Assembly: GCA_050261115.1 (NCBI GenBank)
Contig: JBLNCY010000046.1
Location: forward strand, 1 to 64,000
Length of the DNA: 64,000 nucleotides
Direction: 5' to 3'
From: Methanocella sp.
GTDB lineage: Archaea > Thermoproteota > Bathyarchaeia > Bathyarchaeales > Bathycorpusculaceae
The notes beneath the pieces are model-generated. The model was not told the DNA's origin. It saw only the letters and a list, made by a program, of their open reading frames with translations, and made no database searches. A program made the translations under genes and the position numbers. This document shows positions 56,751-64,000 of the stretch, piece by piece. The first letter of the stretch is position 1. Every line of letters begins with the position of its first letter.

Positions 56751-58034
56751 TTAGGGGTAGAACCTGCGAGTGGTTCTTGGGAACGGAATCGCGTCAATGA
56801 TGTTGTCTAAATCACACATCCACACCAAGAGACGCTCAAGCCCCATACCAAAACCAACGTGTGGCACAGTTCCATATCGTCGCAAGTCAAGGTACCATTC
56901 GTAGTCTTGAGGGTTTAATCCCTGTGCCTTCATGCGTTCTATTAGGAGGTCTTTGTTGTCTTCTCTTGCGCCGCCGGTGCTGATTTCGCCGATGCGGGGA
57001 ACCATCATGTCCACTGACATGGCGACTTCAGGGTGATCCTTGTAGGTTTTGCAGTAGAAGGCTTTGATGGCGGTTGGGTAATCGTAGACAAAGAAGGGTT
57101 TGCCAAAGTCATCTGCAAGTACTTTCTCGTCTTCATAACCCAAATCCGAACCCCAGTCAAGCGCGGGGTTTTTGGGTTTTAGGCGCTCTATGGCTTCTTT
57201 ATAGGTTATACGCGGGAACGGAGCTTTGACCGCCTTTAGTTTGTCGATGTTGGCGCCGAGTTCTTTGAGTTCTTTTTCGCATTTAGTGGCAACTGTTTGG
57301 CAAATGTGCTCCATGAGTCCCTCCTCGAAAGTCATGAGGTCGGTCATGTCTCCAAAGGCCCATTCGCCTTCCATATGCCAGTACTCGGTGAGGTGGCGGA
57401 TTGTTCGGCTTTTCTCTGCACGGAACGATGGCGCAATGCAGTAGACGTTTTCTAAGCTAAACATGAGGATTTCAAGGTAGAGTTGGCTACTCTGGGTTAG
57501 GTAGAGTTGCTGGTCGAAGTATTTCAAGCCGAAGAGTGTTGCGCCGCCTTCTACTGCTGCGGATATGAACATGGGCGGGGAGACTTCGGTGAAGGTTTGT
57601 TTTCTAAAGTATTCCCGTGCAGCCTCAAGCGTTTCGGCTCTAACTTTCATTATGAGGTTCATTCTGCGGCTACGTAGCCAGAGGTGGCGCATGTCACGGA
57701 TGAATTCTTCACTTTTATCTTTGCTAATCGGGAAGTTCTCGGCTAAGCCCACGATTTCGATGGCTTCTGCGCCGATTTCGTATCCGCCGGGTGCGCGTGA
57801 GTCCGGTCGGGCGGTTCCGGTTAGTGTTAGGGAGGATTCGATTGTAAGTTTTTGGGCTGTCTCCCAGCAGGGGCTGTCTTTTTTGATGGTTGATTGGATA
57901 ACTCCGGTTGAGTCTCGGATTACTAGGAAAATGAGGGTTTTTCCTTCACGTTTGCGGTAAACCCAGCCGCGAACCGTGACTTTTTGATCCGTGCAGTTAC
58001 CGTCAAGTATTTGGTTAATCTTCACCAGTGACAT
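56751..58034 (-). CDS. asnS: asparagine--tRNA ligase
   Basis: OB fold (VRGWV), YLTQSSQLYLE, FRAEKSRT.RHLTEYW, GG.RE, WYLDLRRYG.VPH.GFG.G.ER. Confidence 0.9.
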   Translation of the reverse strand: MSLVKINQILDGNCTDQKVTVRGWVYRKREGKTLIFLVIRDSTGVIQSTIKKDSPCWETAQKLTIESSLTLTGTARPDSRAPGGYEIGAEAIEIVGLAENFPISKDKSEEFIRDMRHLWLRSRRMNLIMKVRAETLEAAREYFRKQTFTEVSPPMFISAAVEGGATLFGLKYFDQQLYLTQSSQLYLEILMFSLENVYCIAPSFRAEKSRTIRHLTEYWHMEGEWAFGDMTDLMTFEEGLMEHICQTVATKCEKELKELGANIDKLKAVKAPFPRITYKEAIERLKPKNPALDWGSDLGYEDEKVLADDFGKPFFVYDYPTAIKAFYCKTYKDHPEVAMSVDMMVPRIGEISTGGAREDNKDLLIERMKAQGLNPQDYEWYLDLRRYGTVPHVGFGMGLERLLVWMCDLDNIIDAIPFPRTTRRFYP

Positions 58035-58137
58035 ATGTTACCAACTGTTTGCAGATTATACTTGGCTTCAAACCTAAATGCCTATCGATAACACACAAAA
58101 AAATAGCTATTAATCCAGGATTTGGTGTTCGGCTCAG

Positions 58138-59382
58138 CTATGCTTCGCGGACAGCGGGCTCATGCACCCGTAAAAGGACAAAAAGCGAGAGCGGAACCAT
58201 AGCTATCGCGAACAGCAAAAAGGGCAACTGCGGAGAAACATAGAAGTAAATCGCACCCACCGTGACCTGCAGAAGCCCTTGCATAAGAAACGCAAAGAAC
58301 TGCAGGCAGCCGGTGGCGGTTCCCCTGACATTTCGAGGAATCAGGTCGCCTAGCAGGACTTGGTAGCTGGTTAACTGTAAAAGGTTCCCTAATCCAAAGA
58401 AGAACAAGGATAACAGCATCAGGTTAAAGTCGGCGTTTATGAAAAGCAGCGTCCCAGGGATAAACAGCAGATAGCCCAGTATAAGGAAGCGTTTTCTACC
58501 AAATGCGTCGATGCTAAAGCCCGCTATTATGCCGGGAATTGCGATTGAGAGGTAGCGGAAGGCGGTTGCAATCGCCCACTGGTCTAGCGTCAGGCTGAGG
58601 ACTTTTGTGGCGTAGACTACAAAGTACATTTGACAAGAAACAACTAAGCCATTCACGATTATGATGGCAATGAAGAGGTAGAAAGCGGACCGAGGCAATT
58701 TACTCCAAACGCATAAGCTCTCTTTAACCGCCTTGGGGTAGACTCGTACGCCGTCTAGGAAGGTGAAACGTGCTTTCTCGCCGTTTGGGGGCAGAGTTTC
58801 GGTTAATCGCAGCCTCAAAACCGCCACCGAAAAATACGCAGCCGTAACAATCGTGTAGGCGATACGCATGCCCAAATCGAAATTAAAAGCGCTGACGAGA
58901 TACCCTGCGATTAATGGTGCGGGGAGAAGTACTATTGTGGTTATTACTGACTGGAAGCTAAAGCCTGCCCCGCGGCGCTCAGAGGGCAATGAGTCGATAA
59001 TCATCGCCAAGAGGGCGGGTCCATACATCGAGCACACATTCTGAATAAGTAATCCGATGAGGATGAATTCCCATGAGGGCGCCAAAACAAAAAATAAGCT
59101 CCCGATGGCTAAGCCGAAAGTCATGGTTACGATAATCCATCGCCGGCCATGCTTATCAGCCAAGTATCCGCCGGGGAACTGGACAAAGGCAACTGCAAGT
59201 GAACCTACAAACGCCATAAGGGAAATCGTGAATTCGTTTGCGCCAAGGCTGAGGTAGTAGAGGCTTGCGTAGGTGTCAGGGATAGGCTGGGCGGTGAACA
59301 TTATTATCCAGCTTATGGTGATGAGTAGAAAGTTGCCTCTAAGGATAGCTTGGTCTCCTCGGAAGAGCGCTGACAAATTCAT
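58138..59382 (-). CDS. MFS transporter
   Basis: 12 TM; GGYLADKHGRR motif A. Confidence 0.92.
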   Translation of the reverse strand: MNLSALFRGDQAILRGNFLLITISWIIMFTAQPIPDTYASLYYLSLGANEFTISLMAFVGSLAVAFVQFPGGYLADKHGRRWIIVTMTFGLAIGSLFFVLAPSWEFILIGLLIQNVCSMYGPALLAMIIDSLPSERRGAGFSFQSVITTIVLLPAPLIAGYLVSAFNFDLGMRIAYTIVTAAYFSVAVLRLRLTETLPPNGEKARFTFLDGVRVYPKAVKESLCVWSKLPRSAFYLFIAIIIVNGLVVSCQMYFVVYATKVLSLTLDQWAIATAFRYLSIAIPGIIAGFSIDAFGRKRFLILGYLLFIPGTLLFINADFNLMLLSLFFFGLGNLLQLTSYQVLLGDLIPRNVRGTATGCLQFFAFLMQGLLQVTVGAIYFYVSPQLPFLLFAIAMVPLSLFVLLRVHEPAVREA

Positions 59383-59479
59383 TGCAAATAACTTGGCTGT
59401 GAATTATTTAAATTCGCTTACAAAGCCTCTAGGTTTAATATCTAACTATAATTTGAACCCGCAATTCTTAAATTAAAGT

Positions 59480-59990
59480 GAAAAATGTCCCTTTAGCTTC
59501 TGTCCCTTTCGTTTTTATTGGCGCTTTACTCTTTAGCTTCTGTTTAAAAACGCTAATGCGACGCTTAAACAGCGTTAAAGCGTAAAGCGCCACGTATGGC
59601 TCCCTAAACGTATCTTTAAGCGCTAAAATTGCTTAAAATTACTTAACGTTAGCGGACGCTATCTTCAAAACGTATAAGCGCTTTAACTCGCGCAACAGTT
59701 TGGTCAGTAAGCGTATTAGCTGGCTATCGCTATCACAAGCCGAGTTCCAATCTGCACCGCATATAACAGGCGTTAAAACTTAGCCGCAAAAAGCGCCCAT
59801 AAGTCTTTACACCGTCTAAGTAAAAGCGCTACCATTACCCATCTCGCCTAGCTTTCCGATATTCTAGTAAATTTCGCTCTACGGCTTAGCGGTTAAACCG
59901 TAACAAACTCCGCGTGTTAGCTCTCTCCAATTTTTTATTTTACACAGCTTTGGTCACACCGACCTTAGCGTAAACCGTTTAAAAAGTTGG
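59480..59990 (-). ncRNA. candidate large structured non-coding element (RNA or folded ssDNA), unknown class
   Basis: No ORF of 60 aa or more; successive stems at 59519-59592, ~59616-59683, 59685-59746, 59792-59830 and 59880-59902; most wobble positions favour the minus strand; TATA-like TTTTTAAA at ~59978-59985. Confidence 0.5.
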
Positions 59991-60092
59991 TAAACTTGCA
60001 AACCACAAAAAACCTTGCTATCCAAACCAAAAACCGTTCAGTTTTCTGCATTCCAAGAAACTTAAAATATCCAGCGCAAGAAGGGAGACAAA

Positions 60093-60356
60093 ATGTTTGA
60101 GTACCGCCACAAAAACCGAAAATACATCATCATAGAGGTCGCCGACATATTCTACGCTCAAAACAAAGCCGAAGAAATTCCTGACGAAACACTTCAACCA
60201 GACGAATACAAAGCTTGGGAAAAAGTCGAGGACAGGGCAGCCCGCAAAGTAATACGTCGTATAATACAAAAAGCTAAGAAAGAAAACTTTGTCCTGAAAC
60301 GTTTCCTAAACAATCAACAAGCTGACCAGATAGCCAAAAAACCTCTATCGCTGTGA
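60093..60356 (+). CDS. small charged hypothetical protein upstream of the integrase
   Basis: 87 aa; GGGAG RBS; same strand as the integrase, 47 bp upstream. Confidence 0.7.
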   Translation: MFEYRHKNRKYIIIEVADIFYAQNKAEEIPDETLQPDEYKAWEKVEDRAARKVIRRIIQKAKKENFVLKRFLNNQQADQIAKKPLSL

Positions 60357-60403
60357 TTGAACGGCGTGTACCTTCTAATTTTTGTTGATAGAGGTGCCCG
60401 CTA

Positions 60404-61516
60404 ATGAAGACAAAAGCAGTTCAAGACTTCCTTGACTATCAGACAAACAACGGAACTGAAAAAGCATACAAGAAAAGCGTTTCTATGTTCATCCAGTACC
60501 TCACAGAGAAGCTCGAATACCCCGTAACAGGCGACGAGATTATAGCTCGACGTAGAATCGACGTTAAATCCGAAACCTACGAGATGGAAAACACTATAAT
60601 GCTTTTCAAGCAATGGGCAAAGCTTCAGCCTCTAGAATCAAACCCAGACGAAACCGTATCCGAGCGTACAGCCGTTAATTGGAGAGTCGGCGTTAGAGCC
60701 TTCTTCGCCTACCACCGCCTAGATCTAAAACTCAGACGTATGGAAAACAAAAAACTACAAAGCGCAGTGGCCAGAACGGAGAAGTACAAGTTCTCAACCG
60801 AAGACCTGGAAAAAATGGACAAGTACGGCGACGTTACCGAAAAATACGTTATTCGAGTCGGAAAGAGCTTAGGCTTACGTAACATCGATTTTAGACGCCT
60901 AAAGCGGGGTGATGTCGAGCCATACATTAACCGTCCAGCACCTGTCTGCATCGGCCCCTACATGACAGTCAAAGAACACGTCAACGCCTATCCCTTTCTT
61001 GACAACGACGCCATAGAAATAATAAAACTACGCCTCGAAGAAATGAACCATAAAGGCAAAACCAAACCCAGTGACAGATTATTCACTCAAAACCCCAAGC
61101 AGCTTTCCCGTATTCTAAGAAAACTCTGTGACTTAGCAGGCATAAACACAGGCGACAAACAAGTAAAGTTTCACTGCCTAAGAGCGTTTCTTTGCGACAA
61201 ATTAGCAGGCTACATGTCAGAGTCCAAATGGAAACAAATCGTCGGCAAAAAGATTTCCGAAGGCGCATATGTTGGTCCAGACGAGCTACAGAAAGACTTC
61301 CAAAGAGCAATGCCTGATTTCCAGCTCACTAAAGCACAAAACCAAGAGAACATCGAGCAACTGGTTAAGCTACAAATTCTGAAAAACCAAGCCAAAGACT
61401 TAGGATTAGACATTGAAAAAGTGTTCCGGCTCCGAAACACCGTAAGCGTTCCAGAGCAGATAGAAGTCTTAGAATACATAACTTCAGAAAACCAAACAGT
61501 TGGTGCTGTCTGCTAA
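60404..61516 (+). CDS. tyrosine recombinase/integrase (last codons supplied by the IS)
   Basis: Core-binding T...Y/RAFF, catalytic R (SLGLR), K (TVK), HCLR, VGK in place of the second H/W, Y (GAY). Confidence 0.9.
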   Translation: MKTKAVQDFLDYQTNNGTEKAYKKSVSMFIQYLTEKLEYPVTGDEIIARRRIDVKSETYEMENTIMLFKQWAKLQPLESNPDETVSERTAVNWRVGVRAFFAYHRLDLKLRRMENKKLQSAVARTEKYKFSTEDLEKMDKYGDVTEKYVIRVGKSLGLRNIDFRRLKRGDVEPYINRPAPVCIGPYMTVKEHVNAYPFLDNDAIEIIKLRLEEMNHKGKTKPSDRLFTQNPKQLSRILRKLCDLAGINTGDKQVKFHCLRAFLCDKLAGYMSESKWKQIVGKKISEGAYVGPDELQKDFQRAMPDFQLTKAQNQENIEQLVKLQILKNQAKDLGLDIEKVFRLRNTVSVPEQIEVLEYITSENQTVGAVC

Positions 61517-62872
61517 TCGGTTAACTTTTTGGGCTGAGTTGAGTCCATCCTATGTTATCGACCAAGAAAACAAAGGAATGGAACCCAATGATTTCAGTCC
61601 AAACAAAAGTAGAGATACAAGGCGATTTAAGCCTTGCCAACATATCAAGAGAACTAGAAAAAACAAACATTCCAAAAGAGATCCTTAAATCAGCCATAGG
61701 AAAGCTTCAAGATGAGCTCTTGTTACAGCTATGTGGTCGAAGATACCAAAGAGACCGAGATAGAAAGTTCATCCGAGTAGGAAGTACAAATAGAACACTC
61801 AGCACAAGGCATGGCAGAATAGAATTTAGGCTTACTAAAGTACGCTGCTTAGAGAATGGCTCTATCATGCGACCTTTACTTTTGTACGTTGGAGTTGAGC
61901 CAAAGAAGAGAATCATTGATGATCTAACCTTAGAATGTGCAGAAATAGCCACTTACCTAACCTACCGTGACTCCAAAACAGTGATTGAGAACCTCACAAA
62001 CGCACATGTGTCTAAATGGAGGGTTCATGAATGCGTTCAAAGAGTAGGCGATTTTATGAATAGTGAAAGGAGGAAGTCGCCTATGAAAAGCCAAGATTTG
62101 ATCGAGGGCGATGGGACTAAATGTCATAGCTTGGGTGGAAAGAAGAATGAAATCAACGTTATTTTAGGCAAGGACCAAGCTACGGGAGAGAAGAGCCTTT
62201 TAGGGCTTAGTGTAAACGAGGATTGGAAGACTACACTGAGTCAGTTTAAGGGTAGGGCTAAAGTAGCTGTTTCTGATAATGAGCCTTCTTTGAGGAATGC
62301 TCTTTTAGAAAAAGCGTTTAGTTATCAAGCTTGTATTCGCCACTGCGCTGGTGATGTGAGGTTCTATTTATGGAGTGCAAAGGTGCCAAAGAATCAAAGA
62401 GATAAGTTGGCAGCTAAACTTGAAGGTATTTTGGAAATCTTGCATAATTCTGTTAATAAGCACCTGGTTGATGGTGATTTTGGGAGGTTGGAGTGGAGGA
62501 TTAATTTGACGCTTTCGGAGCTTGGGGTGTTTAGTAGGGAGCTGCTTGAGGCCGGGTTGCCTGTTGTTGCCCGTTTCGTACGGAATGCAGCCAATTACAT
62601 GGTTACTTATGCAAGGTTAGCGATGAAGGGAGCTCAAATTCCTATGACGAATAATTTGATTGAGCGTTTGATGGGTGAAGTTGCTAAGAGGGTTAAGCAT
62701 AAGTGGATGCATTGGAGCACTAGGGCTCTTGAGAACTTGCTTAACATTTTGTTGGCTAGGTACTGTAATAGGCGTGTTTATGGTGAGTTGAAAGAAAGGT
62801 ACTTAAGATCAAAGGTGACAACCATTCGAATAGCGATAACATAGAAAAGCTAGCCGATTAGAAGACACAACC
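61502..62872 (+). mobile_element. ISH6-like insertion sequence, 1371 bp
   Basis: Terminal IRs GGTGCTGTCTGCTAATCGGTTAACTTTT versus reverse complement GGTTGTGTCTTCTAATCGGCTAGCTTTT; imperfect 8-bp TSD AAACAGTT (61494-61501) / AAACAATC (62873-62880). Confidence 0.85.
61552..62844 (+). CDS. DDE transposase (ISH6/UPF0236, Mutator-like)
   Basis: R.L.T..G.I, TYR, DGT, VSD.E, Q.C..H, TNN.IER.M motifs. Confidence 0.9.
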   Translation: MLSTKKTKEWNPMISVQTKVEIQGDLSLANISRELEKTNIPKEILKSAIGKLQDELLLQLCGRRYQRDRDRKFIRVGSTNRTLSTRHGRIEFRLTKVRCLENGSIMRPLLLYVGVEPKKRIIDDLTLECAEIATYLTYRDSKTVIENLTNAHVSKWRVHECVQRVGDFMNSERRKSPMKSQDLIEGDGTKCHSLGGKKNEINVILGKDQATGEKSLLGLSVNEDWKTTLSQFKGRAKVAVSDNEPSLRNALLEKAFSYQACIRHCAGDVRFYLWSAKVPKNQRDKLAAKLEGILEILHNSVNKHLVDGDFGRLEWRINLTLSELGVFSRELLEAGLPVVARFVRNAANYMVTYARLAMKGAQIPMTNNLIERLMGEVAKRVKHKWMHWSTRALENLLNILLARYCNRRVYGELKERYLRSKVTTIRIAIT

Positions 62873-63181
62873 AAACAATCAAAAGCGCTTGCAGCGGTTT
62901 GGGCTGCATATGACGCTTTAACAGCGAAACTTGGAATCCATGCAGATTGGCCTCCCACCAAAGTAATTAACTTCGATAGGCGAACCGTTGAAAGGATTGC
63001 CAAGATAGTTAATGATCCAGAACTGTTTAGACTCTATGACTTAGCCACTGATTTAGACGCAATTGACGCTGGAAAAGCCTGTTGGTACGCAAAACATTTC
63101 ATCGAAAAGGTGAAAGAACTGTTGCCAAAAGTAACTCCGATCGAGCAGGAACTGGCAAAACCTTCTGCATATATCACATAA
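62873..63181 (+). pseudogene. start-less ~100-codon open frame, helical, HEPN/PaREP1-like
   Basis: KQSKALAAVWAAYDALTAKLG...VERIAKIVNDPELFRLYDLA.DL......ACWYAKHFIEKVKELL...; no suitable in-frame start. Confidence 0.5.
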
Positions 63182-63292
63182 CAAAAAACACTTACAAGTC
63201 AGACAAACACACTCAAGGATTACAAGCCAAGAGGCGCTGATAATGTTTTTCTAAAAAAAGATAGGGGAAGTGTATTTTCCTATGTTGGTGTT

Positions 63293-63904
63293 TTATGGCT
63301 CTGGTGCTTTTGTTGGGCTTGGCAGGACAGGAATCGTTTGGGAAGTGTCTAGTGGCGCTTTTGAAGGGCCTGGGCTAACCGAAAGTTCTTGGTTACCTAT
63401 GGGCAATCTTGTTTGAGTTCCATCGCCATTGTATACTATGTGAAATGCGTCGCCTAGCATTAAAATAATGGCTTCTGATCTATTGTCGTTCAGGAAATAA
63501 ATGGATCGTCCAATTCCGCTACCGCCAACAAAGTCTGGTGCACCTACAATCTTGTTGAACTCGCTTTCTAAAGCGCTCACGCCTTTACTGTTATATAACT
63601 CTCCTGCCTGTTCAGCACTTAATCTTGGTGTATCTTTTGGTAGGTCTCCAATAGTAATAAGAACAGGTCGTCTCCATTCGCCTGGTAAACCAATGCTATT
63701 GTCTGCAATGATTTTGTCTAGTTGTCCTTTCTGCTCACTTGTTGCTTTAGCATATGCTAACTCGTAGAAAGATGCACTCGATGCAGGGGTTGCTTCTTGT
63801 CCTAAAATCCAATCGGATGTAGCAGAGACAGCTAATATACCGCCAAATAATGTCCCAACTGCAACGATTGCGAACACCATCATGATTTTTCTATTTTTCA
63901 ACAT
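63293..63904 (-). CDS. secreted hypothetical protein
   Basis: Signal peptide; GAPDF.GGSG..R..Y.L motif; Pro-rich tail; AAGGAG RBS. Confidence 0.75.
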   Translation of the reverse strand: MLKNRKIMMVFAIVAVGTLFGGILAVSATSDWILGQEATPASSASFYELAYAKATSEQKGQLDKIIADNSIGLPGEWRRPVLITIGDLPKDTPRLSAEQAGELYNSKGVSALESEFNKIVGAPDFVGGSGIGRSIYFLNDNRSEAIILMLGDAFHIVYNGDGTQTRLPIGNQELSVSPGPSKAPLDTSQTIPVLPSPTKAPEP

Positions 63905-64000
63905 GTTCCATAAGCTCCTTTATTACTTGTAGACCCAAAGGATATAGTATCCAGTATGCTGATTCATTTCAGTTAGGCCAATATAGTATGTCGAACCTGC

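Follow-up and report, generated by a model that had tools for sequence, protein, structure and literature searches.

We analysed the first 64,000 bases (the window) of C46, a 66,953-bp contig from a Bathyarchaeia genome (G000; 2.15 Mb, 95% complete). An original prediction, made from the letters of this DNA, had singled out positions 59432-63250 as a candidate compact mobile cassette, about 2.4 kb without its insertion sequence, whose tyrosine recombinase travels with, and may use, a large structured RNA, or which carries an RNA-antitoxin/HEPN pair. The parts that it named are present. To the right of the point where an MFS transporter gene starts come about 710 bp without long open reading frames (ORFs; 59383-60092), a small ORF, an integrase gene, an insertion sequence (IS) and a start-less frame. 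The unit is a different one. The flagged span is the left part of a 5,847-bp insertion that runs past the end of the window, and its middle was removed at an ISH6-family IS. The features that define it are listed here, with positions counted along the contig.

58138-59382, minus strand: MFS transporter gene (Pfam MFS_1, E 1e-40).
59464-59473, plus strand: attL core ATTCTTAAAT, the exact left edge of the insertion relative to seven aligned empty sites.
59474-60092, plus strand: element-borne non-coding left arm, 619 bp, absent from empty sites and 92% identical in the metagenome contig L068.
60093-60404, plus strand: small, putative accessory gene, 103 amino acids (aa) in its intact form; the window copy has 87 codons (60093-60356).
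60404-61501, plus strand: gene for a tyrosine-recombinase-type integrase, codons 1-366 by family homology; the annotated ORF spans 60404-61516 (370 codons).
61502-62872, plus strand: ISH6-family IS, 1,371 bp, with a transposase gene (61552-62844) and terminal inverted repeats.
62873-63181, plus strand: 3' stump of a gene for a 376-aa zinc-ribbon protein (last 103 codons and stop), within a start-less open frame (62840-63181).
65311-65320, beyond the window: attR core, the second copy of ATTCTTAAAT, at the right edge of the insertion.
65352-66725, beyond the window: CDF (cation-efflux) gene (Pfam Cation_efflux and ZT_dimer).

The limits of the insertion come from comparison with related genomes. 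An MFS orthologue was sought in 30 of them, and a match at E ≤ 1e-30 was found in 10 of the 18 that belong to the same genus. Neighbourhoods were fetched for full-length matches with 69-76% identity (G001, G005, G007, G008, G010, G015 and G016); G002 (MFS gene interrupted by a stop), G013 (a match at 50% identity) and G014 (matches in fragments) were initially set aside, and G002 was added later. In all seven fetched genomes a CDF gene divergently adjoins the MFS gene, with about 30-350 bp between the blastn alignments. G002 has the same layout with a 135-bp spacer (tblastn), which brings the count to eight of eight same-genus empty sites. A CDF gene within 1.5 kb of the MFS gene was not found at the G013 locus, nor in the more distant G023 and G025. 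In G000 itself, the two genes are separated by about 5.9 kb. Host sequence reaches ...CAATTCTTAAAT at 59473 and resumes with ATTCTTAAATCG... at 65311, and relative to the empty sites the inserted DNA extends over 5,847 bp, from 59474 to 65320. The 10-mer ATTCTTAAAT has two copies in the 66.9-kb contig, both at the insertion edges, and 10 in the 2.15-Mb genome. A direct 10-bp repeat flanking DNA that is absent from all eight same-genus empty sites is the pattern by which an integrative element is recognised.

This comparison of filled and empty sites had been suggested as a check in the original prediction, and it bears out the claim that the DNA is mobile: an att core lies at both edges, and the arm is absent from the empty sites and thus is not host sequence. 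The left edge had been placed elsewhere, at a weak 11-6-11 inverted repeat (59432-59459), and there it does not hold. That repeat lies in host MFS-CDF intergenic DNA, to the left of the element. It pairs at 7 of 11 positions and is one of 74 repeats of equal quality in the 710-bp region (mean 47, range 23-78, in 100 mononucleotide shuffles of the same region).

The core lies within a CAATTCTTAAATCGCCC-like motif that is conserved at the empty sites about 30-40 nt upstream of the CDF start, and by this position the motif would be the TATA box of the CDF promoter. Integration into this putative promoter is clean. At attR the TATA-like sequence before the CDF gene is kept and the bases upstream of it are new, while attL retains the old upstream promoter half and the TATA-like core, now directed into the element. 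Transcription started at the attL promoter half might thus read into the element, across the non-coding arm and the integrase operon. A tyrosine-recombinase integrase joined the att site of the element to the 10-bp core in the putative CDF promoter, and the core is duplicated at both ends.

The integrase belongs to a large family. At E ≤ 0.001 there are 480 relatives among 2,954 candidates; the 120 that are listed are mostly 390-420 aa long, and several are called integrase by one source. Where sources name the hosts of close relatives of the window's proteins, these are Bathyarchaeota or Bathyarchaeia genomes. R159, K190, H257, R260, W276 and Y289 are invariant in all 14 aligned family sequences, and we take these residues to be catalytic from their positions and from the R-K-H-x-x-R-(H/W)-Y consensus. 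PHROG 216 (integrase) matches the window protein at E 2.7e-6, PF00589 matches 3 of 14 homologues (best E 7.3e-6), and the homologue P0003 scores 33.6 bits (E 2.9e-8) against the XerA model NF040815, whose cut-off is 220 bits. PDB sequence searches with the integrase gave no match. The Foldseek PDB matches listed for its structure model are all tyrosine recombinases: XerA 5hxy (E 6.7e-4, probability 1.00), Cre, IntI, lambda Int, XerH and Tn1549 Int. Because the invariant residues and the weak profile and structure matches are concordant, we place the protein in the tyrosine recombinase superfamily, in agreement with the original prediction. XerA itself was considered as its identity and rejected, since the window integrase has no NF040815 match and the family is not a single conserved copy across the genus.

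The distribution of the family within the genus is patchy. The gene is single-copy in G000. Of 119 other genus genomes, 15 have a member of the family and some have two, which is what one would expect of a mobile gene. A tRNA gene was not found within about 4 kb in 25 genome-derived family loci, on the short metagenome contigs L068 and L069, or anywhere in the 64-kb window, and the earlier statement that the recombinase is not at a tRNA stands. Its remark on the absence of recognisable replication, capsid and conjugation genes is likewise confirmed for the ORFs scanned, none of which has such a match in Pfam, PHROGs or PADLOC. Between the att core and the integrase start, which lies downstream of it, there are 930 bp, and only the IS interrupts the integrase gene. 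In this the element differs from those of the SSV type: its att site is not inside the integrase gene, and the gene is not split by integration. It should also be noted that another genome of the genus (locus L128, G102:C6:64300-84299) has an insertion of about 13.7 kb relative to G000 contig C10 56135-56444. In that insertion a member of this integrase family lies well inside the inserted DNA instead of at an edge, and the insertion may be a larger or composite element.

The right end of the integrase gene is lost at the IS. The transposase scores 382.3 bits against NCBIfam NF041731 (ISH6; cut-off 240) and matches Pfam Transposase_mut at E 5.9e-14, and the terminal inverted repeats are 30 nt long and 83% complementary. 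The ends at 61502 and 62872 were set by three partial copies at contig ends; these copies (C46:66746-66953, C45:7854-8060 and C49:9-184) show how a multi-copy IS breaks the assembly. A transposase above the cut-off, terminal inverted repeats and several genome copies are as in the ISH6 family. What is unlike it is that there is no clean target duplication, as the 8-bp flanks AAACAGTT and AAACAATC agree at six of eight positions.

The IS sits at integrase codon 366, and the last four codons of the annotated ORF and its stop (61516) are IS sequence. Two metagenome contigs preserve what lay beyond. L068 has 92% DNA identity to 59567-61501, and L069 matches 60166-61501 apart from 190 unaligned integrase bases, in whose place it has two bases, one of them read as X in translation. 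In both, similarity to the window ends exactly at 61501, after which come about 33 codons that match the family C-terminus. The window integrase is therefore truncated by about 33 aa. L068 and L069 are identical across an 821-nt overlap and so were counted as one comparator. Both copies are decaying in their turn; L068 has a 5-bp deletion in the integrase gene and a nonsense codon in the small ORF.

On its other side, the IS is flanked by DNA that begins mid-gene. Similarity to relatives of the zinc-ribbon family starts at 62873, the first base after the IS, and the N-terminal part of that gene (about 273 codons) was not found in the genome. The DNA that follows the integrase gene in L069 was not found in G000 either. 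The two IS flanks come from different genes and were originally non-adjacent, so the DNA between them has been lost, either through a deletion associated with the IS or because two IS copies recombined. This event took the integrase C-terminus, a middle segment and the first 273 or so zinc-ribbon codons. The compact 2.4-kb cassette of the original prediction is thus what remains of the left part of a longer insertion.

The small ORF is damaged as well. An in-frame TGA at 60354-60356 shortens the window copy to 87 aa; the corresponding codon is GGA in L068 and in P0121, which is 99% identical and has the intact 103 aa, so the window copy bears a nonsense mutation. The intact gene's TAA lies in TAATG, overlapping the integrase start, and a Shine-Dalgarno-like GAGGTG precedes that start by 8 nt. 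A TATA-like TTAAAATAT about 27 nt before the ATG of the small ORF may be a promoter element for both genes. We suggest that the integrase would have been made from this two-gene operon together with the 103-aa protein. Compared with L068, the small ORF has 15 synonymous and 6 non-synonymous differences (pN/pS, the ratio of non-synonymous to synonymous change, 0.10) and the integrase gene has 46 and 20 (pN/pS 0.12). These low ratios indicate that both were real genes under selection.

The small protein is rare. A word-based search returned near-identical copies only, one with the intact 103 aa and two shortened by frameshift or divergence. An exhaustive phmmer search returned 10 proteins at E ≤ 0.001, including five remote homologues of 98-158 aa that are 37-57% identical over the matched stretches. 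Members have in common the motifs DIF, an EEIPD-like stretch and a C-terminal LGLNGVYLLxF; the last is kept in the five remote homologues, and the window encodes it beyond its TGA. The family profile matches 60093-60392 with one TGA inside, and found no further copies among 400 class-level genomes. No library names the family: Pfam on the family gave scattered sub-threshold matches only. The structure model reaches a TM-score of about 0.5 to DUF4177-like clusters, which is under the tool's bar and serves as a lead only. By analogy with the SNJ2 system, described below, the protein would most likely have been an accessory or directionality factor for recombination. In a viral collection we found no true relative of the integrase family, the zinc-ribbon family, the protein P0174, a 26-nt non-coding piece or a degenerate EEIPDETL pattern.

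All three genes in the flagged span are broken: the small ORF, the integrase gene and the zinc-ribbon gene. Taken together, the data point, with a probability of roughly 80%, to a dead relic, a decayed cryptic integrated element of 5,847 bp in a Bathyarchaeia chromosome, with the flagged region as its left end. Elements of this kind are familiar from Thaumarchaeota. In a survey of those genomes (PMC6563490), cryptic integrated elements have the integrase as their sole common gene, measure 2.6-98 kb and have att cores down to 8 bp; 15 of 68 integrated elements are intergenic, and an IS inside one is also reported. The element described here resembles them in that the integrase is the only recognisable backbone gene, the size falls in their range, the flanking repeats are short, the target is intergenic and there is an internal IS. 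It differs in its Bathyarchaeia host, in an integrase that misses Pfam and NCBIfam, in a core at a TATA-like box and in being broken in three places. Intergenic targets of archaeal tyrosine recombinases are also noted in a review (PMC8371274).

The coupling of a small gene to the integrase has a partial parallel in the haloarchaeal pleolipovirus SNJ2. There, according to PMC5861418, two small proteins co-transcribed with the integrase raise integration efficiency; one is a coiled-coil protein and the other a MarR-like protein with a winged helix-turn-helix, and the target is tRNA-Met with a 14-bp core. The likeness is one of layout only: a small co-oriented gene overlaps a tyrosine integrase gene that is not split on integration. 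Unlike in SNJ2, there is here one 103-aa protein of an unnamed family, and the target is a promoter. Searches of the open-access literature listed no paper on integrated non-viral elements of Bathyarchaeia, on the integrase family, or on the small protein or zinc-ribbon families.

The ORF-poor region between the core and the small ORF was central to the original prediction, which saw in it a large structured RNA. It contains the following features.

59486-59539, plus strand: 14-nt direct repeat in three TGTCCCTTTAGCTT-like copies, at 13-66 bp from the att core.
59519-59592: imperfect 74-nt palindrome with 17-nt arms that are 94% complementary.
59885-59901 and 59964-59978, plus strand: two copies of the repeat CTTAGCG(G)T(T)AAACCGT, one on each side of a T-rich tract at about 59930-59943.

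The arm evolves slowly and does not look like coding DNA. Compared with L068, the one independent comparator, 34 of 453 arm positions differ (7.5%), versus 26 of 158 four-fold degenerate sites of the two genes (16.5%; Fisher p 0.0018), and the substitutions have no 3-base periodicity. The slower divergence and the lack of periodicity indicate that the arm is constrained and non-coding. It is single-copy in G000, and searches of 119 genomes of the genus and 400 of the class did not find it; only near-identical copies carry it. Co-occurrence of integrase, arm and small ORF, which the original prediction had put forward for checking, holds in L068 at 92% DNA identity and breaks down beyond it, as neither small ORF nor arm was found (tblastn/blastn) in any of 29 loci of integrase relatives with 26-54% identity. 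In 16 of 18 mapped loci no more than about 320 bp separate the integrase start from the end of the next upstream ORF (minimum 60 aa); the spacers in the other two are 438 and 597 bp. In two same-genus integrase loci, DNA homologous to the G000 host is reached 140-220 bp upstream. We also considered the arm as a remnant of a conserved upstream partner gene and rejected this, since the upstream ORFs in distant loci are mutually unrelated and none matches 59474-60400.

As to structure, one feature stood. The palindrome folds as DNA at −23.1 kcal/mol (z −4.36), and none of 200 shuffles was as good. The main fold signal comes from the two 150-nt segments that contain it; the one starting at 59474 has z −4.0 on the plus strand and −2.8 on the minus strand. 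The eight palindrome-free segments (starts 59574-59924) lie between z −1.7 and +1.0 on either strand, no better than shuffles, except for 59924-60073 (z −2.7, plus strand). The structured element is thus reduced to one 74-nt palindrome.

These results bear directly on whether the tyrosine recombinase is accompanied by a large structured RNA made from the upstream 600 bp and employs it, in the manner of the IS110 bridge RNA. The arm is element-borne, accompanies the integrase in one close relative and diverges about half as fast as four-fold sites; its plus strand as a whole folds at z −3.6, and RNAalifold on the window and L068 keeps 100 pairs with one compensatory change, from two sequences, too few to judge. 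All of this would fit an RNA. Against it, the arm is missing from all 29 loci of relatives, whose upstream spacers are at most about 320 bp in 16 of 18 cases, and the fold signal stems from one palindrome and appears on the minus strand too. Rfam gave no match at E ≤ 1 on 58000-64000. RNA loops that match targets had been named as something to look for. The longest stretch in which the arm exactly matches either strand of the reconstructed 60-nt target is 8 nt, a length that 103 of 200 shuffles reach or exceed; this test is crude, as it allows exact matches and no mismatches. IS110 reportedly recombines by means of a bridge RNA and a DEDD-type recombinase. The likeness to it is confined to non-coding DNA upstream of a recombinase gene in a mobile element. 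Here the recombinase is of the tyrosine type, the arm does not recur in the family, there is no target match and there is no discrete structure beyond the palindrome. Among the titles and starts of abstracts listed by one search of the open-access literature, none reported an RNA-guided tyrosine recombinase. We therefore consider a large guide RNA from the arm unlikely, and an RNA-using minimal element very improbable as an account of the locus.

RNA data were of little help on this point. RNA contigs from the metatranscriptomes X12, X13 and X17 do not cover 59474-60004, and such a lack of cover proves nothing. One 193-nt X12 RNA contig (depth 2.3) covers 60005-60128 and 60197-60265 and joins 60265 back to 60005 through seven shared letters. 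This circular or tandem signature, which takes in the promoter and about two thirds of the small ORF from its start, is most likely an assembly or template-switch artefact.

We favour a role of the arm as DNA. The 14-nt repeat has four matches at up to three mismatches in 7,954 bp, versus 1.13 expected (7 of 200 shuffles reach four), and the repeats near the core are candidate arm-type sites for protein binding. With the palindrome beside them, they would serve as arm-type or regulatory protein sites, and the arm as a whole is best read as a DNA-level control region with att-proximal protein sites, the operon promoter and perhaps an origin. The comparison that suggests itself is attP of the lambda type, with its arm-type sites and directionality factors (summarised in PMC8371274); the term 'arm-type' itself was not found in a search of that archaeal review. 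The repeats and palindrome beside the core and the small co-transcribed protein are alike, which suggests a protein-DNA architecture that controls direction. The arm is unlike lambda-type attP in length, being much longer at about 620 bp, and its arm-type sites are putative, as would be any N-terminal arm-binding domain of the integrase.

Part of the arm might instead have had to do with replication. AAAGCGC occurs five times in the arm versus 0.63 expected (0 of 300 shuffles reach that number) and AAACCGT three times versus 0.2. Both copies of the CTTAGCG(G)T(T)AAACCGT repeat are kept in L068 with one change, and these repeats may be origin-like or operator-like. A reading of the arm as mainly the replication origin of a small integrative plasmid, whose replication protein was lost in the IS-associated deletion, would draw on these repeats around the T-rich tract, on the long palindrome, on constraint without coding periodicity and on the fact that no replication gene is left in the element. 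The repeats, however, are short and few, no replication protein was found for the element or for L069 (2.7 kb downstream of the integrase), and no extrachromosomal copy was seen (nothing in IMG/VR; arm single-copy in the genome). We hold this reading to be unlikely. It is compatible with a decayed integrated element, not exclusive of it, and under the latter the arm may also have held an origin around the T-rich tract in addition to the putative operon promoter.

A more speculative possibility joins several of these features. The arm and the coupled 103-aa protein might be a lineage-specific add-on for site choice or control, for example through a functional RNA that is transcribed from the arm in the integrated state, is driven by the captured CDF promoter half at attL and works with the integrase and the small protein. 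We regard this as a long shot.

The start-less frame at the right of the IS had been described as HEPN-like, and a pair of an RNA antitoxin and a HEPN toxin carried by the element had been offered as an alternative. At its C-terminal end, the 376-aa protein P0124 has 92% identity to the 113-aa frame. The 50 members listed for this family are mostly 371-394 aa long, with an N-terminal zinc ribbon that Pfam sees weakly. A family model (pLDDT 77) had no Foldseek match at E ≤ 0.001 and no usable match in the ESM Atlas. With VIA-align, residues 259-360 align to the sacsin HEPN domain (3o10_A; Z 7.7, root-mean-square deviation (rmsd) 2.2, 95 residues) and to a second HEPN protein (4nqf_B; Z 6.5), values that fall in the tool's stated noise, as for helical bundles a Z below about 13 may reflect common arrangement only. 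The conserved Rx4-6H motif is absent: a 20-sequence alignment has no R or H among its 23 invariant columns, and at the nearest candidate, K342-x6-H349, position 349 reads H, N, N and H in four sequences. PADLOC on the element proteins returned nothing meaningful. The impression of a HEPN-like fold was thus not absurd. The frame, however, is the last 103 codons of 376, without a start, and lies 2.8 kb from the arm, and it took the IS-associated deletion to bring the two near each other. This locus cannot have a toxin function, and the toxin-antitoxin pair has next to no chance of being correct.

Intact zinc-ribbon genes are found elsewhere in the genus. Members with 53-92% identity occur in 15 of 119 genus genomes, with up to eight matches per genome and often on 2.5-4-kb contigs (loci L072-L100 and L140-L150). 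All 11 loci mapped have a convergent Gly-rich partner of 375-480 aa beside the gene, and 7 of the 11 also have a 185-aa ORF upstream. The family looks like a multi-copy, possibly mobile module without a family name.

To the right of the stump, the insertion contains two further genes and a second arm.

63293-63904, minus strand: orf203, cargo gene, without a match in Pfam, PHROGs, PADLOC or NCBIfam; hydrophobic N-terminal stretch.
63923-64975, minus strand: orf350, cargo gene of 350 aa, of which the 3' end (63923-64000) is in the window; no family match, hydrophobic N-terminal stretch.
Between orf350 and attR, beyond the window: non-coding right arm of about 335 bp.

Several observations speak against a single decayed integrative element as we have described it. 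For the integrase, the window protein has no Pfam match at E ≤ 0.1 and no NCBIfam match, its structure model is poor (pLDDT 66.3, pTM 0.36) and the Foldseek matches have TM-scores of only 0.22-0.29 with rmsd values of 12-17. For the strain itself, the contigs, which drop rare forms, showed neither an excised circle nor an empty site. For the arm, the estimate of constraint depends on one independent comparator and 34 substitutions, the right arm of the palindrome is poorly conserved at the extreme start of L068, and the whole-arm fold is stronger on the plus strand (z −3.6) than on the minus strand (z −1.24), as an RNA role would have it. For the right part, 3 of 30 related genomes have orf203 homologues, which sit at other loci and lack an integrase over about 7 kb around them, and in the 11 zinc-ribbon loci, over up to 10 kb, we found no integrase, small ORF, orf203, orf350 or ISH6 transposase (0 of 11).

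The observations on the right part raise the possibility that the 5.85-kb insertion is composite, that is, that the integrase module and the right part (stump, orf203 and orf350) had separate origins and only came together when the IS mediated a rearrangement. The zinc-ribbon gene has its own conserved cluster, apart from the integrase family, orf203 has relatives elsewhere, and the DNA downstream of the integrase differs in L069. The right edge, however, ends in the same 10-bp core, so the DNA beside attR must be the element's right arm. None of the eight empty sites holds any of these genes, and one deletion requires fewer steps. The shared attR core and the eight clean empty sites favour one element, whereas the separate zinc-ribbon and orf203 loci favour a mosaic. 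We consider the composite origin doubtful, yet worth keeping in view beside the single decayed element.

As it stands, a dead integrated element of a familiar type matters little; the locus is an ordinary relic, not a new RNA-using recombination system. What it adds lies in its parts. The integrase stands for a large Bathyarchaeia-centred family of at least 480 clusters in which the window protein and 11 of 13 aligned homologues have no Pfam match at the thresholds used, the window protein and one scanned homologue have no NCBIfam match above the cut-off, and no member lies beside a tRNA in 27 loci. The small protein belongs to a rare family without known relatives that is coupled to the integrase, and is a candidate accessory factor of archaeal recombination. 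The constrained 620-bp arm together with this protein is the sole feature that keeps some curiosity alive.

The right-hand genes are still transcribed. RNA contigs from three studies cover 63264-64982 with a summed depth of 28-150, and the orf350/orf203 operon is thus transcribed. The word depth of these contigs is far above that of other RNA contigs on the 6.2-kb stretch, although contig depth cannot rank genes. The structure is not peculiar to one assembly. A DNA run from another study has the same structure, including the IS, joined to the host flank on a 30.7-kb contig. In addition, 93-99% of sampled words are found in 11 DNA runs from eight studies (digesters, sludge and soil); this is word-sharing alone, and five of the 11 runs, from two studies, may be the genome's own source. 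This suggests that the relic is stable and widespread. Finally, over 65014-65285, contigs from X17 (RNA) and X7 (DNA) match the right arm with several differences and then run into unlike sequence near attR. Strains living alongside this one may therefore have a right arm that has diverged, or a related element.

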